Source: a virus (lineage: Duplodnaviria; Caudoviricetes). Taken from it: 64,000 nt of DNA. Positions 105 to 53,700 of the stretch are shown here, one piece after another. A program made the translations under genes and the position numbers. The DNA lies in IMG/VR virus record IMGVR_UViG_3300031992_000072, positions 16,402-80,401 of that record; one strand, given 5' to 3'. How positions within the stretch are numbered: position 1 is the stretch's first letter; the number at the start of each line of letters is the position of its first letter. Under the pieces are notes generated by a model. It worked only from the letters and a program-made list of their open reading frames with translations, made no database searches and was not told where the DNA came from.

Positions 105-2927
105 TTATGTCTCTGTCGAGGACAATAGCAAGCGAGTAGTACGTGCTTCTATAATCGCTTTCTGTTCTAGTCGTTTGGCTCGCTGTGTTGCCTTCTTCTG
201 CACCAGTCTGTATGTTATTTGGCAATCTTCACATCTGCACTGGTTAGATGCTTTACGCTCACACATTATTCCGCAGTCAATGCATTCATAGAAACCTTTG
301 GTGTTCTTTACACACTGATGATTCTTTACCCAGCTTGGAATTTTTGTATTACAATCCAAGCAAGTGTCGCAATCTTTTAAGTTTGCTTTGATGTTTGACA
401 GAGCAATTTCTCCGAAAACACGCCAGAACATTTGCTTATGGGCAGGTTTATTCATTCCTTCGCCTGCAAACAAATGTTTTACAATATATGGATATGCATT
501 TTCCAACGAACCAAATTTTTCTGTTATTCTGTCTGTTATATCTTCGGCAACTATTTCATATCCATTTATCAGTTTTCTTTCATCTGTATAAGCATTGTCT
601 CTTGCCTCAATGATGCTTGCTTTATTTGAATTGTCCATCTCACAGAATAATTCCGGAATTTCAGGACGTGAATTCACACAAGGTGCTGACAAAAGCATCT
701 GCCAGTTAAATCGAGGCAAACCAGAATAATTTAAATTGATATTTCCAATATCATCAAATGCTTTACAGATACGATTCATTGTAGAATTATTTGGATCTGC
801 ATATTTCTTCTTGCGGTTGTGCGGAGTATCTTTACGCCCGTTCTTGCTGAATGCAAAGAACGTTGGCATACGACCATTCTTTCCGCCGCAGGCTCTGCCA
901 ATACGTTTTGCAATTTGTGGAAAGTCTTTATATTCATGGACGACACCAGTCTTTGCTCCGTCTATACGCAGATTGTTTAAATACGTAAGAAGAGCCGCTG
1001 CCACTCTATCCGGGTTGTCTTTATTCCAGACACGAGTAAGCATATTGGATATTTCGCCAATGTTTGAATAATCATGTGACCTTTTCAGTCCTCTGAAAAG
1101 AGAGTCAAAACTGATTGGTTCCGCATTAGCTACTTCAGCATCGTAAAACAACGGTACAACATCAAAAGCTTTGATATTTCTTTCTGCTATATCAACAAAC
1201 AAAGGATCAACTATAACATTTAGCTGATCCCCGTCGACATCGAACTGCAGAATTCTTGATATCATGCTTTTACAACTTGTATGGATAGCGTTTGTGTAAA
1301 ACCAATCATAAACATTTTGATCGTGTGATATTTTCTGTACAGAGTGCTCAAAATAAAGATGCGGAGATCTTAGAACATCAGCTTTATCATGTCTCCTGAA
1401 GATCTTACATGCGACTTCATCTTTTGCCAGCAAACCTTTCGGTTCTTTGATGCCAAGGAACCAATATTCACAAGCCGCATAAAAGTCAGGCAATACAAAA
1501 AGTCTTTTGTTTTCACACTTTATTTTGCCGGACTTTGCATCAAGAAGCATTCTTTTACGAATATCTCTTAAAGTTTCTTTTGTATAAGCTTCACGTAAAA
1601 GCTCTGGATAATATGCCAGCGCAGCCTTGTACGGTTGTTCAGAATTCTTTTCTGCTTTCAACGTTTTAAGCATCGTATCAGGATCTTTTGTAATACCTTC
1701 AATCCTTGAGTGCTCCTCAGCTGTAAACTGTTTTATTTCATCGTCTGTCATTATTTGAAGCGTCTGTATCTGCTGATAATTTGTGTATGTGTCTTTTATA
1801 TAGTCTTCTTCATAGTTTGTTCTGCTGAAATGACAGTTATTTTCTTTGTAAAATTTCTTATATTCATCCCAGTCTTTATAAAGCTTATATAGTTTAAACA
1901 TAGATGTTGTTAAGATAACATTGATTCTTTCTTTTATAAGATCATGTTTTACACCCCATGCATCTTCTATAATCGGATCAACGTTATTAACCTTGCACCA
2001 TTTTATATAATCCCAGCTGCCCAGTAATCCTTTAATCCAGTCACCTCGTACCATAAAGTTGGATTTTGAAACTTCAGGAAGCATCATTCCGCATCCGTCT
2101 GTATGATCAATCTCAACAGTGCGTACTCCAACTTCATATGAATAATCAGGCTTTATATACATCATTCTGTCTGTTACAGGAGCTTTAAATTCTTTGATAA
2201 CGATACAACGATCTATATCAAAGTCTGTCCACTCTTCTGTGGCTGACGCAGCCAGTGCAAGATATGCCATATATTTTGAAACGTTCAGACTTCCTCTTGA
2301 ATTAATTAAGTCCCAGTCCATTCCGCATTCAAGACGTGCATGAACTTTATCCCACATTTCATCCGAGATGAATACAACCTTATCTCTTCTGAGTTGTCCT
2401 GCGCTGGCTGAGAAAAACCTGTAATGTTTATTCACAACCTTATCGCCATTCAACACAGAAAGATAAAATCCGTTTAAAACAAACTGTCTTAATATTTCAA
2501 GATTTTTCCATTTAATCACAATCAAGTCAAGCGTCTTATCAAGATGCTTCAACCCCATTGATCGTGATAATTCACAACAAAATTCTGCAATCTTCTTTCC
2601 TGTTTTCAGATTATCATATGTAACGCCTTCAGGAAACGGATAATCTGCATCTTTAGGATAATAGATTACGGATTTCAGTCTGACAAATCGTGGTTCATTT
2701 TCATGTTCGTGAATTAACTTTTCAAGGGTTTGCTTTATTTCATTTTTTCTTTGAATGACATTTTCCCGTTCTTCTCCTCCTTTAATGTTTTGAGCGTCCA
2801 TTTCGTCTAGCTTGTTCTTTTCTGCGATTATCTGCATATATAAGTCATATTCTTCGTCAGTGAACAAGTCATAGCTGGATAGGGATACCAACCTTATCTG
2901 CTCTTGCAGATATGTTTTTACAGACAA
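105..2927 (-). CDS. YonO/RdRP-like single-subunit two-barrel RNA polymerase (RNAP-1) with C-terminal Cys-rich Zn ribbons
   Basis: Motifs SASAGQLR, TDGCG, VLRSPH and catalytic FDVDGD (about 1227-1241); C-terminal CxxC pairs. Start moved to TTG at 2927, which follows AGGAGG (about 940 aa). Confidence 0.85.
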   Translation of the reverse strand: MSVKTYLQEQIRLVSLSSYDLFTDEEYDLYMQIIAEKNKLDEMDAQNIKGGEERENVIQRKNEIKQTLEKLIHEHENEPRFVRLKSVIYYPKDADYPFPEGVTYDNLKTGKKIAEFCCELSRSMGLKHLDKTLDLIVIKWKNLEILRQFVLNGFYLSVLNGDKVVNKHYRFFSASAGQLRRDKVVFISDEMWDKVHARLECGMDWDLINSRGSLNVSKYMAYLALAASATEEWTDFDIDRCIVIKEFKAPVTDRMMYIKPDYSYEVGVRTVEIDHTDGCGMMLPEVSKSNFMVRGDWIKGLLGSWDYIKWCKVNNVDPIIEDAWGVKHDLIKERINVILTTSMFKLYKLYKDWDEYKKFYKENNCHFSRTNYEEDYIKDTYTNYQQIQTLQIMTDDEIKQFTAEEHSRIEGITKDPDTMLKTLKAEKNSEQPYKAALAYYPELLREAYTKETLRDIRKRMLLDAKSGKIKCENKRLFVLPDFYAACEYWFLGIKEPKGLLAKDEVACKIFRRHDKADVLRSPHLYFEHSVQKISHDQNVYDWFYTNAIHTSCKSMISRILQFDVDGDQLNVIVDPLFVDIAERNIKAFDVVPLFYDAEVANAEPISFDSLFRGLKRSHDYSNIGEISNMLTRVWNKDNPDRVAAALLTYLNNLRIDGAKTGVVHEYKDFPQIAKRIGRACGGKNGRMPTFFAFSKNGRKDTPHNRKKKYADPNNSTMNRICKAFDDIGNINLNYSGLPRFNWQMLLSAPCVNSRPEIPELFCEMDNSNKASIIEARDNAYTDERKLINGYEIVAEDITDRITEKFGSLENAYPYIVKHLFAGEGMNKPAHKQMFWRVFGEIALSNIKANLKDCDTCLDCNTKIPSWVKNHQCVKNTKGFYECIDCGIMCERKASNQCRCEDCQITYRLVQKKATQRAKRLEQKAIIEARTTRLLLSSTET

Positions 2928-2985
2928 ACAGACCAGTCCTCCTTTTATGAATTTATATGATAAATCCCTTACGGGAATTGAATTT

Positions 2986-3017
2986 AAAAGCCGTGCGTTA
3001 TGGGCGTTTCGCACGGC
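2986..3017 (-). terminator. Terminator-like hairpin in the RNAP-1 leader
   Basis: GCCGTGCG-N12-CGCACGGC followed by TTTT on the minus strand, about 60 nt before the start codon. Confidence 0.5.
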
Positions 3018-3264
3018 ACGTAGCCATTCTCCCATGCCCTATGGCTTGCACCCATCAGGTTCGCCTGTCCCTGAACTATGACGAGAAACGAGAATACACC
3101 AAACGGGTTCGAACTTGAGAGGGTGTGCTGACAAAATCCTATTGCTCGCTCGTTTCTTTTTGTTGGAAAGGAGGTGTCACTCACAACACGTTTAACGTCA
3201 CCACACTATAAATGACGGGAGCTTTTCCAGTCAGAGCAATAAGTATTTGCCTCTCAGAAATTAG

Positions 3265-3335
3265 TAGGGCGTCTGAGAATTGAACTCAAATTGATGGTTT
3301 ATAAGACCATTCTTCTACCGTTGAAGTAACGCCCA
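3265..3335 (-). tRNA. trnI: tRNA-Ile(UAU)
   Basis: Cloverleaf folded by hand: D stem CTTC/GAAG, anticodon arm ATGGT-CTTATAA-ACCAT, T arm TTGAG-TTCAATT-CTCAG. U1:U72 mismatch; no encoded CCA. Confidence 0.8.
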
Positions 3336-3697: not shown

Positions 3698-3760
3698 AAA
3701 AAGGAGCGAGTAAAAATACCCGCTCCTTTGCATAACAAACTAAATATGAAATATTACACA

Positions 3761-3893: not shown

Positions 3894-5045
3894 TTATGCT
3901 ATAGTTCCATTCAGGTATTTCTTAAACATGCTGCCAACATTTACAGACCATTTTTTATTGTATTGATCAATTATCTTTTTGAAATACTCAGGTTCTATCA
4001 TGCTGTAATAAGATAGTTGTCCTCTGAGATGCGTTACATCTCCTATATCCCAAAAGTTCTTGTTCTTTGTATCAAGGATGAAAGAACAAAGAGCTGCTTT
4101 GAAATAGTTCTTTTTCTTTACCGAAACTGTAATGTCATTATCCTTATTCAGCAACAATCCAAGACACCAGTTTGCTGATTTCCCAGCCTTTTTTCCGAAG
4201 TGCGTCTTTTCGTTTTTGATTTTAAAAGGCGCTCCAAACTCTTTTAATGTATCTTCAATTAGTTTAACAATTTCTTCATAAGGAAAGCATTTTTCTGCGG
4301 ATATATGAATATCATCTGCATATCTGGTGTATATAATTTTCCTATCGGCAAGCATATTAAACAGCTTATGATCGATAGGAATCATCATAATATTTGTGAG
4401 CGTTGGCGAAAGCACTGTACCCTGTGGCAGTCCGCCGTTCAGGAAACCAAGCGATAAAGCTTTTTCTAGTTCGTTTCGTCCTTCTTCAGATTTGCAGATT
4501 TCTGAAAGAGGAAAGATAATCGAACACATTTTCATAACAAATTCCAGCGTTGTACTCGGAAAGAATCCGCTAAAATCTGTTTTCAAAAACCAGTTACTAT
4601 TATTCCTTTGGTGTTTTTTAACACAATCTACGATACATCTGTCTTCAATATATGCAAAAGCAGATGTATGATACAGAACACCACAGTCATTTTTCAGAAA
4701 ACTACTCAGTACTCTTAGTGCGTTCTGTAGTTCGTCGCATGGTGCGTCTATTTGTCTGAAGCCGCCAGTAGTCTTTGGAATTTTAAAGCTGTTATATAAA
4801 CTTTTTCTGTCTTTTTCAAACAAATTACTGTTTAATAAATTAAACTTTCTCAACCAGTTAATCATTCCATTAACATCTATTTTATTTAGAAATGCTTCCG
4901 GAATTTCTTCAAACTTCTTTGTAATAGTAGCACTTGAATAGCTTTTTTCATTTGTAAGTTCGTTTAGAACTATTTTTTCGTTAAATACATCTTCCCAAGT
5001 TAACTGATGAGGTTTGCGATTTTGTTTTACTGTTAAATATATCAT
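3894..5045 (-). CDS. Retron-like reverse transcriptase
   Basis: FKIPKTTGGFRQIDAP, KTDFSGFFPS, GLPQGTVLSP, YTRYADDI and LGLLLN motifs; 383 aa, stand-alone, no maturase or endonuclease extension. Confidence 0.9.
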   Translation of the reverse strand: MIYLTVKQNRKPHQLTWEDVFNEKIVLNELTNEKSYSSATITKKFEEIPEAFLNKIDVNGMINWLRKFNLLNSNLFEKDRKSLYNSFKIPKTTGGFRQIDAPCDELQNALRVLSSFLKNDCGVLYHTSAFAYIEDRCIVDCVKKHQRNNSNWFLKTDFSGFFPSTTLEFVMKMCSIIFPLSEICKSEEGRNELEKALSLGFLNGGLPQGTVLSPTLTNIMMIPIDHKLFNMLADRKIIYTRYADDIHISAEKCFPYEEIVKLIEDTLKEFGAPFKIKNEKTHFGKKAGKSANWCLGLLLNKDNDITVSVKKKNYFKAALCSFILDTKNKNFWDIGDVTHLRGQLSYYSMIEPEYFKKIIDQYNKKWSVNVGSMFKKYLNGTIA

Positions 5046-5058
5046 TTCTTTTGCCTCG

Positions 5059-5330
5059 CACTTAAACTAAATTACTAGAACCAGTCATCTCGCTGCCTCC
5101 TCGAGTCGCCGCGCTTGATTCTTTTCCGTCGCTTCTTCCCGATTTCGGGGTCTTTGTTTAGGTTTCTGACTTGTGATTTGTCCATGTTTTCATTTTCTAG
5201 CCCTTTCGACATCCTACTGGGCACCGTATCCGGACCACCTCGTGCTTCCAGGAAGGCGTTTTTACCGGGCAAAGTGATACAATTCATTACATGAATTGTT
5301 CAACGAGTGAACGTTGATTTTCTTTAAGTG
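5059..5330 (-). ncRNA. Candidate retron msr-msd ncRNA
   Basis: Terminal inverted repeat CACTTAAA (5330-5323) / TTTAAGTG (5066-5059); G immediately after a1; two hairpins at 5300-5317 and 5279-5299; ends 13 nt before the RT ATG. Confidence 0.6.
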
Positions 5331-6002
5331 TTACAAGACAAGTGTTTCGAAATTAAACGGATTCAGTATCATTGCTCTTTCAAGTTTCTCTTCTTTAACA
5401 AAATTAACAAAATTTATCACACCAGCCATTGCGACGCTCCACACAGTCGGCATTACGCAAAGTGATACTTTACATGCGCTGACAGGAACATTCTTTTCAG
5501 CTTCTGCGTGAGTAAAATCCATTGTTTCAAGTAACGCTTGAATATCAGAAGTTTTAGTCCAGTCAGCAGCATAATGCTGCGCGGAAACCAAAGCAGTCCT
5601 GAAATCGAACATCGCCTTAATATTCAGGTTATACTTATTCTCTTCGACAATGCGCTTCCTAAGCTCAATATTGTCAACACAAAGAAAAACATAACCATTC
5701 AGCTTATTTCCATCCCAGCCGTCTCCGTATAATTTAATTGTCTTCGCTGCTTCCGGATTAATCTCAACCCAACGGTCATATACACCTTCAAGTTTTGGTT
5801 TATAAAGATTTTTCGTAGTAAACATCTGATTAGCCAGATTATGTTCTTCAACAACGTCAAAGTCATACAAACTGACATTTTTCAAGCCAAATCTGGCAAG
5901 CAGCTCAGCCACCGTAGAACCGACTGAGCCGCAGCCAATGATATGAATTCTGTCTGTACACTTTTCAGGGTTAAAGAACTCAGCACTTTTTGCTAAATTC
6001 AC
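5331..6002 (-). CDS. ThiF/E1-like adenylating enzyme
   Basis: IIGCGSVG nucleotide-binding loop, DFDVVEEHNLANQ, CVDNIELR, downstream Cys (CKVSLC). GTG start overlaps the JAB stop. Confidence 0.9.
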   Translation of the reverse strand: MNLAKSAEFFNPEKCTDRIHIIGCGSVGSTVAELLARFGLKNVSLYDFDVVEEHNLANQMFTTKNLYKPKLEGVYDRWVEINPEAAKTIKLYGDGWDGNKLNGYVFLCVDNIELRKRIVEENKYNLNIKAMFDFRTALVSAQHYAADWTKTSDIQALLETMDFTHAEAEKNVPVSACKVSLCVMPTVWSVAMAGVINFVNFVKEEKLERAMILNPFNFETLVL

Positions 6003-6772
6003 CAGTCATACCCTCCGTAATACGTTCCGTCCCAATAGTCATTGAGATAGACTGTTTCGTTTTTTTCGTTTTTTTTACTCTTTTTCTGAACCGGATAATA
6101 ATTCTGATAAGGATAAGTTTTCTTTTCCAGCACCAGTTCTTTTGTAGAAGCGATAAAACCAGAAACTGTGTCGTCTTCGTCTTCAATATCAATCACTACA
6201 TCGTTTTTATCATAGAACATATTATTATCCAGATCATAAAGATAAGTATTAATATCTCCGCTCTTATTCCAAATCTGGAAAATATAGAAACCAGACTTAC
6301 CCATACTTCTGACAACATCTGCCTGGTTTTGAAGGTCTACTCCTGATGCTGCTGTAGACATCTTTACATGAGAATGCGCCTGAAAATGCATATGTTCAGC
6401 TTCATCATCTGTAAGAGAATTGAAGAACTCAAGAGTATCATTATCTTCAGTGTCAACCTTACTGCCATTTACATACTGCTTACAGATTTTTACATCATAT
6501 ACATAATAGAGCGTATCAGACAGTTTCTTGACAAGCCCATACCAGGCGACCTCAGTGTCATAATAATTGACCAAGGCTTCCATACGAACATATGCCTTCT
6601 GAGAATAAACGATAGTAATCTTTTCTTTTGCTTTCATTGAAAAGTCTGTAGAAAATGTGAACTTTGTATCATTCATATTTTCCTTAAACTTTTCCCATTC
6701 TTTTCTAAAGTTTGCAAAGAATGATTCAAGCATTTTATTTTCAACTTCTTCTGTTATTTTAATCGGCTTCAT
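5999..6772 (-). CDS. JAB/JAMM metallopeptidase
   Basis: Glu in EVAWYG plus an exact HxH-x7-S-x2-D motif (HSHVKMSTAASGVD). Confidence 0.85.
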   Translation of the reverse strand: MKPIKITEEVENKMLESFFANFRKEWEKFKENMNDTKFTFSTDFSMKAKEKITIVYSQKAYVRMEALVNYYDTEVAWYGLVKKLSDTLYYVYDVKICKQYVNGSKVDTEDNDTLEFFNSLTDDEAEHMHFQAHSHVKMSTAASGVDLQNQADVVRSMGKSGFYIFQIWNKSGDINTYLYDLDNNMFYDKNDVVIDIEDEDDTVSGFIASTKELVLEKKTYPYQNYYPVQKKSKKNEKNETVYLNDYWDGTYYGGYDW

Positions 6773-8229
6773 TCTTCTTTCTCCTTGTCAACCAAATAAA
6801 TCAACGCTTCTTCAGGAGTCATATCTACCCCATCTTTACGGCGAAGAACTTTCTCACGGCTGGTCAGAAGCCAACCAAGAAACGGTCTGAAGTTCTGTTC
6901 AGTTTCTTCAAGATTAACAGAACCTGCGGAAGCACAGCAATATTCAACCGCAACAATATAATTACGATTCAACATTGCATCAATAATCCTGTCGCCAAAC
7001 TGACCGAAACAGGAATAATTCTTAAAATGAGGATTCGGAATATATTCTTTCAATTCCGGATCAGCAACTACATAATCATACGTTCTTGTTGACGTACAAT
7101 TGCAACTATCAAAGTCAAGCGTATAATTACTGCAAATTTTAATCGCAAATTCAGGGCTTTCACAGAAAATGCTGTTCAACAAAATCTTCCTGTTTTCACG
7201 GTCTTTGAATGCATCGAGCAGGTTATTCTGCATATACTTGCCGTCAAAGATATGTCCTGCTTTTGCAAAGCTTTCCCATGCATCCTCATTATAATTATTC
7301 AGCAAAGTACCAACCGCAAATGTAAGCTTGCTTCCCTGGATCTTCAGATTAAACAGTTGCTTATTTGTGCTGAGATATTCAACAAATTCATCTTCAAGAT
7401 CATTCACATTTTCAGTTGCTTTCAGTCCTTCATAAAGAACAATAAGTTCCTTCAGATGCTTAATTGCGTTTGTATATTCAGTCTTTGTCGATTCTACATA
7501 CCGCCTCTGATCTGATACATCCCTGAAAGCATGATTGACTTTACCTTCATGCATTGCCTTCAGAAGTGTACCAAGCATCATGCGTCTGAAGTCCATTGTA
7601 TAAGGAGCTACCGCATTCTTGATGCTCTGAACAAACGCAAGCTTATCATTCTTTGCGAGCGTTGTAATGATCGAATAATCTTTCTGTTCAAGAGGCTTAT
7701 ACTTAAACAGATTCGGCATCATAAGACTAAGGAACGAAATAAGAAGATGATAATATTTTATATCCTTGGATCTGATAAAGATTGCCGCAATATTCTTTTC
7801 TTTATGCCGAGCAGCAATACAATCCACATCAGCTTTTTCTTTCAGAAAAGCACCAATCTTTTCAATAATAACATAATCATGAAGCGCCAAATCAGACTTA
7901 ACATTATCATAATTATGCGTATATGTATAATAGCAAAACATCGGAACGTCTGTAAGAGATTCTTCTCTATCAAACAGATTCAATACTGCTGAACTTTCTT
8001 CTGGATACGAACAATAAACACCACTAATACCTTTATAAGGATTGATTCTTTCTTTCAGAAGAGCAATCCCAAGACATGTCAACGAGTAATCAGGCTCGTT
8101 TTCCAGCCTGGAAATAGTGTCAATATACTCCTGTGGAATAGGATCGATAGGATTCTGAATATATTCTCTGAACATTTCTTTTGTTTCTCCGTTTCTTTTA
8201 TTAAAATTAGGGGAGCTGATATATTTCAA
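6769..8229 (-). CDS. Large protein with a C-terminal prokaryotic E2-like domain
   Basis: PNPHFKNYSCFG motif (His..Cys) near the C-terminus; central coiled coil; lies between the Ubl and JAB genes. Confidence 0.6.
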   Translation of the reverse strand: MKYISSPNFNKRNGETKEMFREYIQNPIDPIPQEYIDTISRLENEPDYSLTCLGIALLKERINPYKGISGVYCSYPEESSAVLNLFDREESLTDVPMFCYYTYTHNYDNVKSDLALHDYVIIEKIGAFLKEKADVDCIAARHKEKNIAAIFIRSKDIKYYHLLISFLSLMMPNLFKYKPLEQKDYSIITTLAKNDKLAFVQSIKNAVAPYTMDFRRMMLGTLLKAMHEGKVNHAFRDVSDQRRYVESTKTEYTNAIKHLKELIVLYEGLKATENVNDLEDEFVEYLSTNKQLFNLKIQGSKLTFAVGTLLNNYNEDAWESFAKAGHIFDGKYMQNNLLDAFKDRENRKILLNSIFCESPEFAIKICSNYTLDFDSCNCTSTRTYDYVVADPELKEYIPNPHFKNYSCFGQFGDRIIDAMLNRNYIVAVEYCCASAGSVNLEETEQNFRPFLGWLLTSREKVLRRKDGVDMTPEEALIYLVDKEKEE

Positions 8230-8253
8230 TCAGCTCCCCGTATATTACGGAGA

Positions 8254-8862
8254 TTATTTAGCAATAATCAGCTTATCAATCTCCGCTTCCTTTTCCGTGA
8301 TTTCCTTCAGCAGATCAGGAATTTCCTTTTCAATTTGATTCAGGTCAAGCAGTGCAGAACCCATAATGTCCTTCACCGCAGCCAGCTTATCATCGACATC
8401 CTCGTCGAGCAGGACGGTCACAGTGGCCTTGCCGCCGTCATTGGTATAGGTGCCGAAGCAGACACCATATTCATTGATAGAGCCACTGCCACTGCAGGTC
8501 TTCACCTTAAACAGAGCGTCACCGTCTTCATCAACGATCTTCAGCGCTTCGGGAGCATACTTTTCTACACGCTCCCAGTCTTCCCGAGCCACATCAGATA
8601 CAACAACAGCAGAAGCACCGGAAATTTCAACATGAGCAGCATTGTCGATCTTCACGATGGAAGACAGACGGCACTCCTTGTCGACGCCCCACTCACGCAG
8701 AGTCTTGTCCATTCCGGCAGGGTCAATACGAGTACCATCGATACAGTTGGTGGCTACAGAATAGTCCACGTCGAAAGCATCGAAGATCTCACGGATAGTG
8801 GTTCCTTCATCAAACAGGTCACTCTTGCGTCCAGCGGCAGTGGTAACATAAACTTTAATCAT
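8254..8862 (-). CDS. Ubiquitin-like (beta-grasp) protein fused to a C-terminal extension
   Basis: N-terminal 75 aa MIKVYV..TTIREIF..DG..MDKTLREWGV..RLSSIVKIDNA has a Ubl-like pattern; first gene of the E2-JAB-E1 operon. Confidence 0.65.
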   Translation of the reverse strand: MIKVYVTTAAGRKSDLFDEGTTIREIFDAFDVDYSVATNCIDGTRIDPAGMDKTLREWGVDKECRLSSIVKIDNAAHVEISGASAVVVSDVAREDWERVEKYAPEALKIVDEDGDALFKVKTCSGSGSINEYGVCFGTYTNDGGKATVTVLLDEDVDDKLAAVKDIMGSALLDLNQIEKEIPDLLKEITEKEAEIDKLIIAK

Positions 8863-8994
8863 CTTTTAATCTCTCCTTTTCTTTTATTAATCTTTTTAAT
8901 AGATGATTATTATATATAGCAAGTTTCCTTGCAATATACCAAAAGTAAGAAAAACAAATTGTAAGGGAATGAGGTCAAGCATGGAGCCCATCCC

Positions 8995-9041
8995 TCATAG
9001 TAATTGGCGGAGTTTACGACGCCAGGATGTAGAAACTATAT
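8995..9041 (-). promoter_or_regulatory. Conserved stem-loop motif B, copy 1
   Basis: TGGCG-GAGTTTACGA-CGCCA (plus strand); second copy at 18438-18484 has a compensatory base pair. Confidence 0.55.
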
Positions 9042-9429
9042 TTTGTATTAAAGAGAAAATGTGCCGTAAGACCAGTCTTAAAAATCTTACGGCACAATTC
9101 TTCCCGGGCGCAAAACCACGCATTCATAGGAAGAAATGCTCTTACTAACCAGTCTTACTGCCTATGCCTGATCGTCTTCGTTTTACAACAGTTGACTAAA
9201 CTGATACGACGACATCACAGAATAGGCGCTGTAACTTCAGAGCCGGGAGTCACCCTGTTAACAAGTCGGTTTATCCTCATGCTTAGGAGTTGGATTCTTC
9301 TTTCGCGTCCGCCGAGAAGAGAAAGAAGATTTCGACACTACGCCACCAGGCGGGCTGTTAAGAAAAGGTCGGCTAAGCTGATTAGCCAGTTACTTTACCT
9401 TCCTGATTATTTGGTTAGTGTCTTTAGTA

Positions 9430-9524
9430 TAGTATTACAGGGACTTGTTCGGTATTTAGTCTGCGCAAACATCAACCGCGCCTCACATTAAGTTCTCATA
9501 GCGCAGAGAACCCCTGTAATACTA
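9430..9524 (-). ncRNA. Candidate 95-nt structured RNA closed by a 13-bp terminal stem
   Basis: TAGTATTACAGGG (9430-9442) / CCCTGTAATACTA (9512-9524); internal GTTCTC/GAGAAC hairpin; abuts the tRNA-Gln 3' end. Confidence 0.45.
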
Positions 9525-9525
9525 A

Positions 9526-9603
9526 TGGCTGGCGTGGCTGGATTCGAACCAGCGGAGTCTCCGGGTCAAAGCCGGATTCGTTAAACCGCTTCGACACACG
9601 CCA
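9526..9603 (-). tRNA. trnQ: tRNA-Gln(UUG)
   Basis: Acceptor TGGCGTG/CACGCCA, anticodon arm TCCGG-CTTTGAC-CCGGA, GTTCGAATC T loop, encoded CCA. Confidence 0.92.
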
Positions 9604-9786
9604 ATGTAAAAAGCCGCATAAAGCGGCTAAGTAGAAGGTAGAAGTCCTTTTATCATGCACTCAGATTCTATTTTCTATACATGGTTTACGTGCGCACCTG
9701 AGCCCTTTTTATTCGCCCGATCAAGGAACGAGCCAATCTGTGCCTTTGGTGGACTTCAATATCAGGCGTCCCTGAATTTCCCTTCC

Positions 9787-9857
9787 TGGTGCCAGCCCCG
9801 GGAGTCGAACCCAAGCCGAGCGCATAATTGCACCCTCTTCCGCTGAGTTAGGCTGAC
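9787..9857 (-). tRNA. tRNA-like gene with a non-canonical anticodon arm (identity undetermined)
   Basis: Acceptor GTCAGCC/GGCTGGC plus ACCA, GTTCGAC T loop and D arm present; only 71 nt; anticodon loop folds as about 6 nt (AATTAT). Confidence 0.6.
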
Positions 9858-9952
9858 ATATTATTTTTTCATTCTATTGTTAAGATCTGCAATTGTATAT
9901 AAGATCCAACCAATTAATCCAAAGACAAGAATAACATTGATTAATCCAGTAA

Positions 9953-10210
9953 TCATTTAGATTCCTTCCTTTTTCCATCAGCACAGAACCAATCCTTATC
10001 CGGCTTGAATTTTATGTTGTGTTCATTTCTCATGTTCCTACAATATCCATCATCCATGAAACCATAGTGGTCAATTAAAAATCTGCAATCTTTGCAACGG
10101 ACAAGTTCTCCGTGATTGTCATTCCATTGATAATCAGAACCGAGCTCACCGCCTGTCCAATATGATTCTATAAATTCAATTTTTCTTTTTTGCGGTCTGC
10201 TTTCGCTCAT
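9953..10210 (-). CDS. Small Cys-rich phage protein (VRCKDC...FCADGKRK family)
   Basis: ORF; shares motifs with 10908-11210 and 11844-12146. Confidence 0.7.
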   Translation of the reverse strand: MSESRPQKRKIEFIESYWTGGELGSDYQWNDNHGELVRCKDCRFLIDHYGFMDDGYCRNMRNEHNIKFKPDKDWFCADGKRKESK

Positions 10211-13687: not shown

Positions 13688-13715
13688 ACAGCTTCTCCTT
13701 TTAAATCCATATCAG

Positions 13716-13797
13716 TCGGCTAGGTGGGACTCGGACCCACACGCTCATAGAGCACGAGATTTTAAGTCTCGAATGTCTGCCATTCCATCACTAGCCG
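13716..13797 (-). tRNA. trnL: tRNA-Leu(UAA)
   Basis: Acceptor CGGCTAG/CTAGCCG, anticodon arm CGAGA-CTTAAAA-TCTCG, long variable arm; T loop reads TCCGAGT. Confidence 0.85.
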
Positions 13798-29184: not shown

Positions 29185-32100
29185 TTAGTCGATCTTAAGA
29201 TCGTCTTCCGTGGCAGAGAGAGCAGCTTCTGCTTCGTCTGCACAGCTGATTTCAACGGCAAGACCGCCGAAGATCAACCGATACGCAGACCAGAGCTTAT
29301 TCCTGATGAAGTCGGTCTTCCCGTCCATCTTCAGGTACTTCTCATCGCAGTACGCGAACATCTGCCAGGTGATCACGTCGTATGCGTCTTCCAGCGTCTT
29401 TCCGTGAGCGACCGCGAAGGCTTCGATCTCTGCAAGAGCGTTTGCTCTCCATGCCATTTCGAAGGTAACTTCGTCGTCGTCTTCGCTGACATTGTTCTTG
29501 TCCTTATTGCTATCATCGTCCAGCCAGACAGCACGGTCACGGTCCAGCCTTCTGGCAAGGCTGTTAAACAGACCCTGATTCGGACGGAACCTTTCACCAT
29601 TGATGGTTACGAGTTCTCCGTTTCCTTCCCGGATCAGTCCGGTCAGACCACGATATCCGCATTCCTGATTGAACATGATCTTCTTGTAGTCGAACTGTCC
29701 TTCAGGCGCATCGTCGATCTTTACGTCTCTCCGAGCATTCTCTGCATACAGAGCGAAGAGCTTGTTCAGCGTCTTATACCTGTGGAGCTCGTTGAGCTTG
29801 GACGGATCAGCCAGTTCATCCAGATGGTTCTTGGGAGTCTGAAGCAGACTGTCGTTCAGATAGAGGCTATTGCTCTTATCAAGCGAGAACCTGTCGATCA
29901 TTACAGGTTTTCCGTCCGGTCCAAGCTGAACGATTCCGTCATCGTCCGTAAGGACAACGTACCTGGTTTCCTTGTAGTACGTGTTTGCTTCCCGAGCAGT
30001 TGCGAAGAACTTTTTCTTACCGTTGTGCTTTACATACCAGATGTTGCCTTCATCAACGGCATCTTTGTATACCTTCGCCCACGGCTGAAGCATACGAGCA
30101 CAGATAGAGCTTTCTTCAGGCTCTTCAATTTCCGCTCCGCCATGCTTGCTTGCGTCTACCAGAACGTTCGCAGCGAACTTCTTGAAGTCTACGCCGCGAT
30201 GAGTGACGGGCATCCTCTTGGTATACCAGCGTTTGTCCACTTCGTCCTGTTCTGTGAGCAGACCGTTCAGCAGAGCATTGAGCCCATAGACGGTAAGCCC
30301 AAGCTCATTCATATGGGTCAGACCCGCGAAGTACTCTCGAAGAACCTCTTCGGTAATCACAGTCTTCTCCGGGTTGGGCGTTTCCCAGATAATCAGTCTG
30401 TTCCATACCTTGAGTGTTTCTTTGACAGCCTCGATGATCGCAGGATCATCGCTGGTGTTGGCGTGGTCTCCATCAAAGTCCATGTCCATGGCGACTGCTA
30501 CGTCGTCATGGCAGTTCAGGAAGATTGTATATTCTTCGTTCTTAATGAACTTTCTGTAATTGCTCGGAATGGATACATTCTCCAGAACACGGACACTGTT
30601 CGGATGAACCACAGGGCTACGCCACATGGCGAGCTCTCCGTGCTTCACGGTCGGCAGATGGATCTGACCAGCCTTCAGCATTCCGTTGTCGTTCTTCCCA
30701 TGCCACGCGGCAAGGATGAAGAACGGATCGGGACAGACAAAGCTGTAGAAGCAGTCCTTCAGAATCTTTCCCGAAAACGCTTCGTTGATGTTCTGCTCCA
30801 TCTTATGTTCAATATGTTCTCTGAAAGAGGGAACGTTCACGAGCTCAGGATACTGTACGGCAACGCTGCCCCATTCTCTTCCGAGCATCTTTGTAGCGCT
30901 TTCAACTGTGTGATTGTCGTTCAGACGCTTGATGGTCTTTGCAGCCATCTTTGCAACCTGTTCATCGGTTGCTTCGCACAGGCACTGCGTTACCTGATAC
31001 GAGATGTTCTTCTTTTCCTTGGGATGAGTCTTGACTACGGTGCCAAGGGTGATCTTTTCACCCATAGCCGTACACCAGTCTTCAAAGGTCTTGTAGGCCT
31101 TGTTCTTGCCAATGCTGGTCTTGATGACAGACTCGTCCACGAAGAAGACGATATCATCGATATCCCGTCCGTCAGGTGTCTTGGTTACGCCAATGGACTT
31201 CAGGTAGGCCTGAGCATTCACATTCTTGCAACCCAGACCTTTCAGCTTCACGGGGTTGCCCCTGTAGCTGTAGAACGACGTGTCGTTCTGGAAGTCGTTC
31301 AGAATCTTGTCTGCCTTTTCAGCAGACATTCCGTTGTAAACCATCTGGTTGTGTAGTTCCATCTGAACCTTCTTCGTCATGCTGATGACGAAGAATCCGT
31401 CAGAGAACTTCACAGGAACAAGATCGTTATCCCTGTCTTCGGCATGACCGTCAAGATACAACTTCGTTGTGTTTGCCACAACGTTCTTGACTACAGTCGG
31501 ATAGATGCAGAACATCTCCGGCTTGAACGGAATTTCGATCTGGTGGCTGTACACTGCGATCAGACCTACGGTATAAGCGATGTTCTTGGCAGCAGTGTTC
31601 TGCCATTCATCATCGACTCCGCCATTAGTGTATTCCCGCATCTTGTCATAGATACTTTCTTTTACTGCAATGGTCTTGCACCATTTCGCAGCGTTCGTGC
31701 CGTGTCCGAAGATACGGTACTTGACGTTGTTCACGAGAAGACCGTTCTCGATCACGTCCAGCCATGCATCGAGCAGCCTCTCGGCACGGATGATACCTTC
31801 GAGGTCTTCCTCGTTCTTCGGCTCTGCGATGCGGCTAACTACGTGGATGACAGCATCTTTACCGCCAATTTCCATTGCCTTATCTTCTACAAGACTGACG
31901 GACTTGCGGATCGTGTCATAGACCCACAGGTTTTCAGACGTAGGATCGTTGTTCAGCTGAGCACGAATGAACTCCATGCTTTTGTACGTCTTTACGGTTT
32001 CAGGCTTACAGATCTTCCGCAGGGCGCGGACAACCTTGATGGCGGTTTTCTCACCGATGCCCTTGATTGCCGTAAGCTTCTCGATATTGTTGGTGGCTAC

Positions 32101-32436
32101 TGCGTTCCGCAGCTCACCACAGTCAATCTTGATGACAGCCTCGATCATCGGCTTATTGATCTTTTCCTTGATCATCAGCCCAATGGCGTTGATCTGCCAC
32201 TGCTTTTCGTCCAACAGTGTGTAGCAGTCATAGTCCCAGTTGTGAGCGTCAAGGACGACTCTGGTTCCATCGATAACGGACTCCAGAAGGCACTGATAAT
32301 CGCCCTTCTTGGCGTCTTCAAAGTAGCCGTAAGCCACCTTGAGATCGTCGCGTTCTACAAAGTGTACTTTTCCTGCGTTCGGGCCTTTCTTGATGATGCA
32401 AGAAACCCTGAACAGAATGTTAATAAGTTTCGCCAT
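29185..32436 (-). CDS. Second YonO/RdRP-like two-barrel RNA polymerase (RNAP-2) with N-terminal helix-hairpin-helix
   Basis: FSDGFF, WRSPVVHP and MDFDGD (about 30466-30480); LTAIKGIGEKTA HhH near residue 120; AGGAGG RBS; C-ending codon bias. Confidence 0.8.
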   Translation of the reverse strand: MAKLINILFRVSCIIKKGPNAGKVHFVERDDLKVAYGYFEDAKKGDYQCLLESVIDGTRVVLDAHNWDYDCYTLLDEKQWQINAIGLMIKEKINKPMIEAVIKIDCGELRNAVATNNIEKLTAIKGIGEKTAIKVVRALRKICKPETVKTYKSMEFIRAQLNNDPTSENLWVYDTIRKSVSLVEDKAMEIGGKDAVIHVVSRIAEPKNEEDLEGIIRAERLLDAWLDVIENGLLVNNVKYRIFGHGTNAAKWCKTIAVKESIYDKMREYTNGGVDDEWQNTAAKNIAYTVGLIAVYSHQIEIPFKPEMFCIYPTVVKNVVANTTKLYLDGHAEDRDNDLVPVKFSDGFFVISMTKKVQMELHNQMVYNGMSAEKADKILNDFQNDTSFYSYRGNPVKLKGLGCKNVNAQAYLKSIGVTKTPDGRDIDDIVFFVDESVIKTSIGKNKAYKTFEDWCTAMGEKITLGTVVKTHPKEKKNISYQVTQCLCEATDEQVAKMAAKTIKRLNDNHTVESATKMLGREWGSVAVQYPELVNVPSFREHIEHKMEQNINEAFSGKILKDCFYSFVCPDPFFILAAWHGKNDNGMLKAGQIHLPTVKHGELAMWRSPVVHPNSVRVLENVSIPSNYRKFIKNEEYTIFLNCHDDVAVAMDMDFDGDHANTSDDPAIIEAVKETLKVWNRLIIWETPNPEKTVITEEVLREYFAGLTHMNELGLTVYGLNALLNGLLTEQDEVDKRWYTKRMPVTHRGVDFKKFAANVLVDASKHGGAEIEEPEESSICARMLQPWAKVYKDAVDEGNIWYVKHNGKKKFFATAREANTYYKETRYVVLTDDDGIVQLGPDGKPVMIDRFSLDKSNSLYLNDSLLQTPKNHLDELADPSKLNELHRYKTLNKLFALYAENARRDVKIDDAPEGQFDYKKIMFNQECGYRGLTGLIREGNGELVTINGERFRPNQGLFNSLARRLDRDRAVWLDDDSNKDKNNVSEDDDEVTFEMAWRANALAEIEAFAVAHGKTLEDAYDVITWQMFAYCDEKYLKMDGKTDFIRNKLWSAYRLIFGGLAVEISCADEAEAALSATEDDLKID

Positions 32437-50767: not shown

Positions 50768-53700
50768 ATGAGTAATCCAACAATACAAATTGATCTCGAA
50801 GTTAATGGCGAAAAAGCATTACAATCAATAAGCAATTTTAAAAAAGATGCAGATGAAAAACTTTCTTCTATTGGGAAAATTGAAAAATCGTTTGCTCCGG
50901 CTGTTGAACAGTTAAATTCTGATAAATCATTATTAGGTTCTGGTGAAGCTTTTGATTCGTTTGCTAACTCAATAATGACTGCAAACAATGCAATTGCTCA
51001 AATGAGAAAAACGTTGAATAGTTTTTCTTCTTCTATTGATCTTGGAAACATTACAGACGGTATGACACGAATGTTTGAATCTGCATACCGCACAATGTTA
51101 TCAAGCATAAAAACATTAAATGCAGAAGTTGATAGAGGATTGTCAAAAGGTCCAAAAAACATTAACGCATATACGCAAGCTGAAAAATCAATAAAACTTG
51201 CCTCTGTGACTGGTCAGTCTGCTTCTGCCGACATGATTAGAATGTTAAGAATTGTCAACAACGCGCATCGTGAAACAGGATTAAATGCAGATCAGCTTGG
51301 CGAAATCATGCCAGCTCTTTCTTCTATTGTTAGAGCTAAAACGGACGAATATAGAAAAGCAACAAAATCTACTCCAAGATTAAGTGAATTAGCAAACTTT
51401 ATTGCAAATGAGGATATATTTAAAAATACAGTTGGATCATCTATTAAAGGATATAATCCTACGCAACAGCAACTTGCACAAATTGCAAAAGGAGCAATTG
51501 TTGCAACAAGAAGCAATGCATATAGAGATAATTTAGAGATTCTTAAAGCGGCTGGACTTAAAGGCAGCGAGTATCAATATGTAACAGATCAAATGCCTGA
51601 AGTATTTAAAAAAGCATATATTAATTACGGAAGACCGAATAGTTCAAAAGAAACAAATATTATCGCTAAAAATATAGGTAAACAAGCCGTAGATGAAGAA
51701 GTTTACAAAAAATTTATGCAGCTTGTTCGGAACGGAAACCAGCAAGCTATTAAGATTGGACAGGATGTAGGACTTGTACGTGCTAGAAACGGTTCTTATC
51801 AGTTTACTGGTAATGCAAGAAAAGCACAATTCGATACAATGGCTGGTATTGTTGCTCAAGTTGCTGGTGAAGCAAAGAGTTCTTTACCCTATCATTACAT
51901 TCAAAGAAACGATCAAACACAACAACAGAAACTATTAAACAGAAACAATAATATTTTTAACGATGCTCTTGAACTAATGGAAATTTTAAGCGGACAATCT
52001 GGACTTGATCCAAATGCTTATGGATACGTTCCGTTTGGTACAACAAGAGAATCTTTAAAGAATTATAGAGACTTGTTTGGTTTTGTTGGCTCTGGGAAAA
52101 ACTATAGACGCTTCAATAAAAATGCTCCTAAAATTCAAACGCTTGGTGTTGCTAATCAGTATGTTGTTCCTAAAACACATTTGGATCAAAATGGAAATCT
52201 TGTATGGAGAGATCCATCTTGGCAAAAGACAAATGGTGTTCAAGAGTCGAAAGATGATCAGTTTGCAACAATAGGTAACAGTGCTCTTACATATTTGCTT
52301 GGAATGCATGGGCACAATACATACGGATATGGGAGAACTGACGAAGGAGAAGCAAATTATCAAACACCAAAGGTTGTCAGAATAAGCACGTCACATTTAT
52401 ATAAACAAATAAGAGAAAAAAATGGGACAAGGATGATTGTAGATCCTGAAAAACAGACAGAAGCTGATCGCATTAATCGTCTTTTTGCTAGAAAAGAAAC
52501 AGCTCACTACACTCGTCCTGGCGAAAAAGAAAACGATGATAATGAATATATTGCTGCTATGGGTGATGCAGAATCACTTACAATGATTCGTAAAAAGGAT
52601 TATGATGCTATAGTAAGTAATTTTGCTAAATATGGTATGGCAAATCCATTTGATAACATGAACACAGGCGGTTTGTTTATATCTGGTGATTATAAAAATG
52701 CGGCAAAACAAATTGACTTGTCCAAGAAAAAGGCAACGCCAGGATTTCGTTATGCAGAATTAGGATATGCAAAATCTCCTTCTGCTGCTTTGGTAGACTT
52801 TGAGCAGTTATATGAATATCTTGGAATACCAAAAAACAATCAATTTATGCGTCAAAGTCAGCGTCTGGATGGTCTTGCTCTTTTTGATCCAAGCGTTCTT
52901 GGTGTCAATGCGCAGATGCGTGCTGGTATTGTTGGAAAATTTATGGGTCAAGCAACGGACTGGCGAAAATTATTATACGAATCTGGCATATTAGAAAGTG
53001 CATACAAAAAAGCAACAACTGGAGACAAAAGAAATTCAGGATTAATTGTTAAAAATGGAAGCAACGGTGTTCCTCAGGATTATTCTTTTTATATGCCTAT
53101 GGTTGGCTTAGAAAAAGAAGAAGCGCAATCATATATTGATAGAATAAATGAACTTCAAAGAAAAGCCAACAATGGACCTATTTCTGAAGATGAAAAAAAT
53201 GAGCTTGAACGAATCAGAAACACATATTTTTATGATATCATGGATAAAAAATATGATGCTCTGATTGCCGAATCTACGATAAAGAACAACGATAAGTATA
53301 GAATTATTTCAAAAAATGCTTTTACAAATAAAGATGGTTTATTTCGTGGAGAAAAATGGGTAAAAGATCGCGGAGATGGAACTGTTGAATTATCAGCAGA
53401 CCAACAACGCAGATATTTTGAAGCAGCTGTTAAAGAATCTGGTGGCTATTGGATTAACAAAACTGGATATGACTTTCGTACTGATAAAGATTTTATACCT
53501 GAATCTCTTGCAACAGCTATGGGTCTTGAAGTTGGGGATTTAAAAGATCAATCTAATGAAAATTATAACGAATACATTCATAAACTTGAGACAGATAAAA
53601 ATGCAAGAATAAACTTTTTAAATACAACAGCTTACGGAAGACGTCTTGTCCAAGAAGGGTTATATGACAGTGATCTTGCAGATAGGTTAATCAGATCACA

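Follow-up and report, generated by a model that had tools for sequence, protein, structure and literature searches.

A retron-type reverse transcriptase linked to a ubiquitin-like conjugation cassette in large gut phages

Organization and linkage of the cassette

A gene cassette at positions 3894-8862 was analyzed computationally in a 64,000-nt stretch (the window, within which all positions are counted) of the 80.4-kb IMG/VR virus record IMGVR_UViG_3300031992_000072, a record that also encodes a large terminase, a portal protein and two YonO-like RNA polymerase genes. The cassette lies wholly on the minus strand and encodes, in this order, a ubiquitin-like (Ubl) domain fused to a second domain, X, an E2-like protein, a JAB metalloprotease and an E1-like adenylating enzyme, followed by a spacer containing a non-coding RNA (ncRNA) and a retron-type reverse transcriptase (RT). 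A preliminary description of this DNA had proposed this same-strand order, including a 285-nt gap before the RT, and start/stop overlaps between the E2-like and JAB genes and between the JAB and E1 genes; the coordinates bear out the order, and both overlaps are of 4 nt, at 6769-6772 and 5999-6002, respectively. The genes and the spacer are as follows:

8254-8862, minus strand: Ubl-X fusion gene, 202 aa
6769-8229, minus strand: long E2-like open reading frame; the likely gene is 6769-8175, 468 aa
5999-6772, minus strand: JAB/JAMM metalloprotease, 257 aa
5331-6002, minus strand: minimal E1-like adenylating enzyme, 223 aa, GTG start
5046-5330, minus strand: gap between E1 and RT, 285 nt
5059-5330, minus strand: retron-type ncRNA (msr-msd), from sequence, covariation and a covariance model
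3894-5045, minus strand: retron-type RT, 383 aa

The linkage of the RT to the tagging genes was followed in IMG/VR and GTDB. A first RT scan gave six viral loci, with the full set in the same order in all five that had upstream DNA. When the scan was widened, 80 IMG/VR loci were recovered at RT identities of 41-73%, five of them at contig edges; in every one of the 75 loci with enough upstream DNA, genes for E1, JAB and the E2-like protein were found upstream of the RT, with Ubl and X in nearly all. Three distant loci reached from the E2-like side all contained JAB, E1, gap and RT again, and far RT representatives (36-38% identity) have E1 directly upstream. The GTDB survey, which used one genome per species, produced 17 loci (RT identity 32-50%) on contigs of metagenome-assembled genomes (MAGs) from gut samples, all 17 with at least E1 and JAB upstream. 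Taken over the surveys, the block co-occurs across RT identities of 32-73% and E2-like identities of 20-69%, in the same order and on the same strand, while none of 63 retron RTs from outside the clade (at most 34% identity, mostly without the N-terminal ~75 residues described below) is accompanied by any of the five genes. Within a single RT clade the pairing is complete; beyond that clade it is absent.

Searches with Pfam, PADLOC and NCBIfam revealed no toxin-type retron effector domain in the cassette proteins or their homologue sets, in agreement with the preliminary description, which had noted no toxin gene beside the RT. Because of the in-clade linkage and the lack of a toxin-type effector in the cassette, the tagging kit is taken as the conserved partner of the RT. 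This possibility had been raised in the preliminary description and is supported by the IMG/VR and MAG counts set against those outside the clade. A synteny survey of RT homologues for the Ubl genes had been suggested as a check on it; linkage held, and the opposite outcome, RT homologues unlinked to the Ubl operon, was not seen.

The carriers of the cassette are large uncultured gut phages, and megablast of the region against GenBank phages returned no match. The genomes of close relatives are complete, 148 kb long and carry terminal repeats. Distant carriers, also complete at 114-139 kb, share 27-30% identity with this phage in the terminase and 25-28% in the YonO-like polymerase, while identities are higher for RT and E1, at 41-50%. 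The shared terminase and YonO-like polymerase place the carriers in a single deep group of large phages. The distribution of the RT in this group was surveyed in 32 records longer than 100 kb, many of which are proviruses, whose terminases are of one family with that of this phage. The RT was present in six of the 32, and in two of the 20 with a completeness of 90% or more, so the cassette is dispensable for the group at large. This accessory status fits a conflict-type role better than a housekeeping one, without proving it.

The RT matches RVT_1 in Pfam at 1.9e-20. Its best PADLOC match is RT_II-A (2e-49), and all 25 of the best matches listed are retron RT models; the best NCBIfam match is retron_St85_RT (NF038233, 3.7e-53), with the group II intron and DRT models scoring far lower. 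On these profile scores the RT is placed in the retron clade of prokaryotic RTs. The YADD motif is intact, with Y239, R241, D244 and D245 invariant in 32 representatives, and the N-terminal ~75 residues are conserved, specific to the clade and not covered by other retron RTs. The family comprises at least 150 RT clusters at 50% identity. Assignment to retron type II-A (St85/Sen2/Ec86) was considered and rejected: the retron_St85_RT score of 180.7 bits lies below the cut-off of 235, and an effector resembling nucleoside deoxyribosyltransferases (NDT) was not found in the cassette.

The spacer between E1 and RT, in which the preliminary description had pointed to retron hallmarks, is a retron-style ncRNA whose ends, a1 and a2, pair with each other. 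In the window, a1 (CACTTAAA, 5323-5330) begins directly past the E1 stop codon and a2 (TTTAAGTG, 5059-5066) ends 13 nt before the RT start, with TTTAG just 5′ of it, these coordinates having been read by hand off alignments. Hairpins at 5301-5316 and 5280-5298 are followed by a long purine-rich, weakly paired template. The ncRNAs of 12 loci were aligned, each from 12 nt 5′ of the G that follows a1 to 12 nt into a2. The E1 stop codon is followed at once, or after a few bases, by a1 in these loci, and the central part of the ncRNA differs from locus to locus in both length and sequence. The 8-bp core of the a1/a2 helix is kept in all 12 despite diverged sequences, 9 of 12 helix pairs having changed on both sides; examples of a1 variants that keep the helix are TACGTAAA, GCGTAAT, CTCACAAT, CATGCAAT and TTATCATAAT. 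The G directly after a1 (position 5322) is invariant in 12 of 12 loci and, judged from the alignment, answers to the conserved guanosine of retrons, with a putative role as the branch point for 2′-5′ priming. Immediately 5′ of a2, TAG is present in 10 loci and GAG in the other two.

Covariation bore out the retron hallmarks. For the a1/a2 helix together with the second msr hairpin, 84% of cells in the 12 loci are paired, compared to 34-42% in slid controls in which the helix partner was shifted by 1-3 columns, and 47 cells carry double-sided changes, compared to 5-11 in the same controls. None of 500 shuffles matched the observed percentage paired, number of cells changed on both sides, number of further pair types or covariation score, while 6 of 500 reached the observed count of pairs changed on both sides.

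A covariance model (R1) of the 5′ part of the ncRNA, built from the window's own subclade and not picking up the ncRNA of distant relatives, found one copy in the window and the same one in the whole 80-kb record. In relatives, the model found extra copies: a tandem pair in the E1-RT gap of locus L025 (6400-6486 and 6686-6770), and copies of the msr-like 5′ element downstream of the RT in L018 (13658-13752), L066 (8561-8649 and 14774-14861), L068, L085, L089 and L107, some of them kilobases beyond the RT. This arrangement suggests that, in some relatives, one RT may serve several template RNAs. An Rfam scan of the window returned two tRNAs only.

The tag and its enzymes

The 202-aa Ubl-X protein was modeled with AlphaFold2 (AF2) at a predicted local distance difference test score (pLDDT) of 94, and divides into two parts:

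8635-8862, minus strand: Ubl beta-grasp domain, residues 1-76, ending ...VKIDNA (AF2 and fold search)
8254-8634, minus strand: domain X, residues 77-202, a beta-rich core and a helical hairpin

Foldseek matched the Ubl domain to ubiquitin and SUMO with probability 1.00, TMt 0.65-0.73 and a root-mean-square deviation of 2.2-3.0 over 71-77 residues. The VIA matches, at Z 9.5-8.6, include 8tyz_B (Z 8.6), from a bacterial E1-E2-Ubl complex, as well as the small subunit of molybdopterin synthase (6jc0, Z 8.9). Relatives of X were found neither in Pfam nor among PDB sequences nor in the ESM Atlas; the X fold was not searched on its own.

In distant relatives, X (~130 aa) and Ubl (75-84 aa) are encoded by two genes, X preceding Ubl. 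The window type has the opposite order and joins both in one protein, which makes the fusion more than a read-through of adjacent genes. Stand-alone Ubls mostly end in K-x-D-N-A, stopping right after Asp-Asn-Ala (D-N-A), and stand-alone X begins M-A-K/Q-I, the residue after its Met (mostly Ala) aligning with the residue that follows D-N-A in the fusions; the Ubl-X junction of two fused relatives, L026 and L027, reads DNG. These ends and their alignment indicate that the working C-terminus of the tag is Ala and not Gly, and in the fusion this end is blocked by X. Since X and Ubl are separate and in reverse order in the relatives, the fusion must be cut between D-N-A and the following Ala, and from the alignment of the junction mature X starts with Ala in both layouts. 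The JAB protein would be the obvious candidate for the cut after D-N-A. As a matter of speculation, Ubl-X may mimic a conjugate of Ubl to a protein N-terminus.

The preliminary description had called the Ubl-E2-JAB-E1 operon complete. The Ubl, JAB and E1 assignments stood, whereas the E2 label is only partly backed, by an RWD-like fold and a motif; similarly, the E2-like reading frame at 6769-8229 is present, but its gene start had to be corrected. All 119 homologue clusters at 90% identity begin at the position equivalent to 8175 (MFRE...), and a strong hairpin at 8210-8239 fills the upstream part of the reading frame, for which reasons the most likely start is at 8175, giving the 468-aa form to which the residue numbers below refer. 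RWD domains belong to the UBC/E2 fold superfamily. In the AF2 model (pLDDT 92), an unassigned N-terminal alpha/beta domain and a long helix precede a C-terminal UBC/RWD-like domain. In an exhaustive VIA search, the best matches other than coiled coils were all RWD domains, of Knl1 (4nf9, Z 7.2; 8q5h), the SEA complex (8adl) and Ltn1/listerin (9gy4, 8aaf), over residues ~255-420. The homologues share an invariant PNPHx5CxG (N381, H383, C389, G391), in which the Cys lies six residues past N-P-H; by analogy, this recalls the HPN...Cys of E2 enzymes. A second VIA run with the N-terminal part gave only coiled-coil and weak MoaB/MoeA-like rows. NCBIfam contained no matching model for the protein and the ESM Atlas nothing usable; BFVD returned one uncharacterized Siphoviridae protein, and tblastn against GenBank phages one weak match, to an unannotated fecal phage contig.

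The JAB protein itself has no Pfam match, and 9 of 25 members of its family match Prok-JAB weakly. The motif ExnHxHx7Sx2D is invariant in 25 homologues (E74, H133, H135, S143 and D146), and the family profile matches Rpn11 at an E-value of 0.007 with the motif aligned. E1 matches ThiF in Pfam at 2.4e-18, and its PDB profile matches are MoeB (1jw9, 1.2e-7), ThiF, UBA5 and Cap2, the alignment to MoeB spanning the nucleotide-binding region. GCGxxG, D47, D49, N55, N58, Q59, K70, D110, R115 and C177 are invariant in 24 homologues, a conservation that marks the adenylation site as intact. All E1 scores are far under the NCBIfam cut-offs for the ThiF and MoeB families. In one subclade (L005 at 6478-7038; also L039, L056, L058 and others), a gene for a very acidic protein of ~186 aa lies between JAB and E1, and acidic genes of a similar kind are located a few kilobases downstream in other loci.

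Known systems and interpretation

Known retrons pair an RT and its multicopy single-stranded DNA (msDNA) with a toxin-like effector. The cassette resembles them in its retron-clade RT, in an ncRNA directly 5′ of the RT with covarying a1/a2, a post-a1 G and msr hairpins, and in its tightly linked accessory genes, the nearest RT profile being that of the St85/Sen2 family, type II-A. It differs in having five linked products (X, Ubl, E2-like, JAB and E1) and no known effector type found among them, in the extra N-terminal ~75 residues of the RT, in the lack of a clear msd hairpin, in its large-phage carrier and in the extra ncRNA copies of relatives.

Bil (BilABCD) and Bub are bacterial Ubl conjugation operons with Ubl, E1, E2 and JAB, and in the present locus a single operon likewise covers these four roles, the Ubl having a beta-grasp fold, E1 being an adenylating enzyme and the E2 role falling to a candidate cysteine protein. 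In contrast to these systems, the Ubl of the locus terminates in Asp-Asn-Ala and either is fused to X or has X encoded beside it, its E1 is minimal at 223 aa, its 468-aa E2-like protein has two extra regions and no E2-family sequence match, and it always occurs with an RT and ncRNA and is carried by phages instead of a bacterial defense island. In type II of the cyclic-oligonucleotide-based anti-phage signaling system (CBASS), Cap2, an E1-E2 fusion, primes the cyclase and Cap3, a JAB protein, reverses this. The E1 of the cassette resembles that of Cap2 (PADLOC E1-E2 models to 3e-14; PDB 7tsq/7to3), and in both systems a conjugation enzyme and an opposing JAB are tied to a nucleic-acid-related enzyme. 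The locus differs from CBASS type II, and was not assigned to it: its E1 and E2-like proteins are separate genes, its Ubl is free-standing, and neither a CD-NTase cyclase nor a cyclic-nucleotide effector was found in the cassette. The ParB-related, ThiF-related cassette (PRTRC; TIGR03735-03742) likewise contains ThiF-like, E2-like and JAB-like genes on mobile elements. Membership in this group was also rejected, E1 scoring 19.3 bits against a TIGR03736 cut-off of 144.75 and the other four proteins matching no NCBIfam model.

The pairing would be the first known to us to connect ubiquitin-like conjugation with reverse transcription in viruses of prokaryotes. Full-text literature searches found no paper on the pairing of a retron with a Ubl kit, and the words ThiF, JAB and ubiquitin are absent from the classification of 13 retron types by Mestre et al. 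2020 (PMC7736814), consistent with the view of the preliminary description that the pairing is new with respect to characterized retron types.

We favor the reading, which we hold to be reasonably likely, that the locus is a phage-borne retron of a new type whose partner is a Ubl conjugation module and not a toxin. The RT would copy part of the ncRNA into msDNA and remain bound to it, while JAB would cleave Ubl-X after Asp-Asn-Ala to give Ubl with a C-terminal Ala and X starting with Ala. E1 would then adenylate Ubl, possibly carry it as a thioester on the invariant C177, and pass it on to the E2-like protein, which would accept it on its own invariant cysteine and attach it to a target. The RT-msDNA complex would be the sensor or scaffold that restrains or directs tagging, as in other retrons, and the likely setting would be a conflict of phage with phage or of phage with host; the preliminary description had suggested anti-defense or inter-phage competition, two roles that may apply. 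The composition and linkage of the cassette are well supported; the succession of steps, what is tagged and the role in biology are inferred. It is very unlikely, to our minds, that the msDNA or the RT-msDNA complex is itself the Ubl substrate, with the Ala-terminated Ubl loaded onto the retron DNA or the RT to form a protein-nucleic-acid conjugate active against a rival phage or host defense, and Ubl-X serving as a store of tag releasable by JAB.

Several observations weigh against the favored reading. The Ubl lacks the usual C-terminal glycine, ending Asp-Asn-Ala and not Gly-Gly. The E2 assignment is weak, with VIA scores of Z 6.4-7.2 that are under the tool's caution line of 8, nothing at E ≤ 0.001 with Foldseek against the PDB, no Pfam E2 family match in any member and no Pfam domain in any of the 119 clusters; the label "E2-like" is reasonable but not proven. 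A classic msd hairpin is not evident in the spacer: compared with shuffled sequence, neither its middle part nor the whole of it folds better (z -0.35). Among carriers, the gap between E1 and RT spans from ~60 nt (L014, 2403-2463) to ~1540 nt (L077, 5461-7001), and with only 60 nt in L014 the ncRNA need not always be there; some loci may have their ncRNA in another place, and others may have additional RNAs or genes within the gap. Conserved synteny shows functional coupling and is silent on which part regulates which. Finally, the msDNA, Ubl cleavage, conjugation and phenotype are all predictions from sequence.

The direction of regulation could be the reverse of that proposed, with the kit acting on the retron: Ubl placed on RT, X or msDNA-RT would switch it on and JAB would reverse this, as in CBASS type II, the output being cDNA or RT activity instead of the tagging of a foreign target. 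The matches of E1 to Cap2 E1 domains in PADLOC and the PDB speak for such a mechanism, as do the conserved clade-specific N-terminus of the RT and the reversal of gene order, by which Ubl-X looks like an encoded conjugate of Ubl to an N-terminus. With no CD-NTase or other obvious output enzyme found in the cassette, however, and no invariant lysine in X in the homologue alignment, we consider this unlikely. The block might instead serve the phage life cycle (replication, transcription take-over or virion assembly) as housekeeping outside any conflict. Its neighbors are of early or replication type (SSB, a YonO-like polymerase and, in L012, SNF2/MCM), and the distant carriers share terminase and polymerase with RT and E1 more conserved than either, but the RT is missing from most of the same-terminase large phages, including most of the near-complete ones, and a housekeeping role is accordingly rated as quite improbable.

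The remaining alternatives separate the components or give them another chemistry. If E1 and Ubl formed a sulfur-carrier system of the ThiS/MoaD-ThiF/MoeB type, they would act in thiolation and not in protein conjugation. The best E1 matches are indeed ThiF and MoeB, and the Ubl has its VIA match to 6jc0; yet the Ubl does not end in the sulfur-carrier Gly-Gly, its best folds are ubiquitin and SUMO, JAB and a cysteine-bearing UBC/RWD-like protein are always present, and E1 falls far under the family cut-offs, leaving a sulfur-carrier system with only a very slight probability. That the Ubl operon and a stand-alone retron are two independent modules and chance neighbors would be helped by a promoter inside E1, which is possible given the weak consensus sites listed there. 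Against this, the co-occurrence is complete within the clade, in the same order and on the same strand, with none among the 63 other retron RTs, a1 follows the E1 stop codon at once or within a few bases in 12 loci, and the scan for terminator-like sites found none between E1 and RT. Chance neighborhood is close to refuted and, in our judgment, barely credible.

If the favored reading is true, retrons would have a different output logic, with protein tagging in place of a toxin. Clean handles for experiments are offered by a Ubl with Ala at its end, its encoded fusion to X and the new architecture of the E2-like protein, and compact retron RTs with defined ncRNAs are of practical interest for genome editing.

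Expression signals and neighboring genes

Candidate expression signals of the cassette were located by consensus match and by a scan for terminator-like sites:

8906-8934, minus strand: promoter-like site 5′ of the Ubl-X gene, TTGCAA-17-AATAAT, consensus match only
8210-8239, minus strand: candidate attenuator between Ubl-X and the E2-like gene, an 11-bp G+C-rich hairpin followed by TAATTTTAAT, from the terminator-like scan
3700-3729, minus strand: terminator-like hairpin, 13 bp and a T run

The scan found no terminator-like site on the minus strand between E1 and RT, as the preliminary description had also read it, and the hairpin at 3700-3729 is the first past the RT. The hairpin at 8210-8239 separates Ubl-X from the enzyme genes and may act as an attenuator. 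The Ubl-X gene lies in a G+C-richer stretch (0.44 in the 8001-10000 bin, compared to 0.36-0.37 on the side of the enzyme genes), which may reflect high expression or a different origin; a G+C-rich Ubl-X gene followed by a hairpin would fit a tag expressed above its enzymes.

An SSB (single-stranded DNA-binding protein) gene is located upstream of the cassette and a YonO-like RNA polymerase downstream, with SNF2/MCM downstream in L012. The polymerase beside the cassette (105-3035, minus strand) is a 976-aa YonO-like protein of the two-barrel type related to RNA-dependent RNA polymerases (RdRP), matching phrog_8308 at 2e-165 and Pfam RdRP at 7e-14, and a paralogue of 1083 aa at 29185-32436 on the same strand matches phrog_8308 at 1.4e-29. 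Three minus-strand tRNA genes, Ile(TAT), Gln(TTG) and Leu(TAA), at 3264-3335, 9526-9603 and 13715-13797, bracket the cassette, and all three read codons ending in A or T. On the plus strand, an open reading frame of at least 4411 codons begins at 50768 and runs off the end of the window at 64000.

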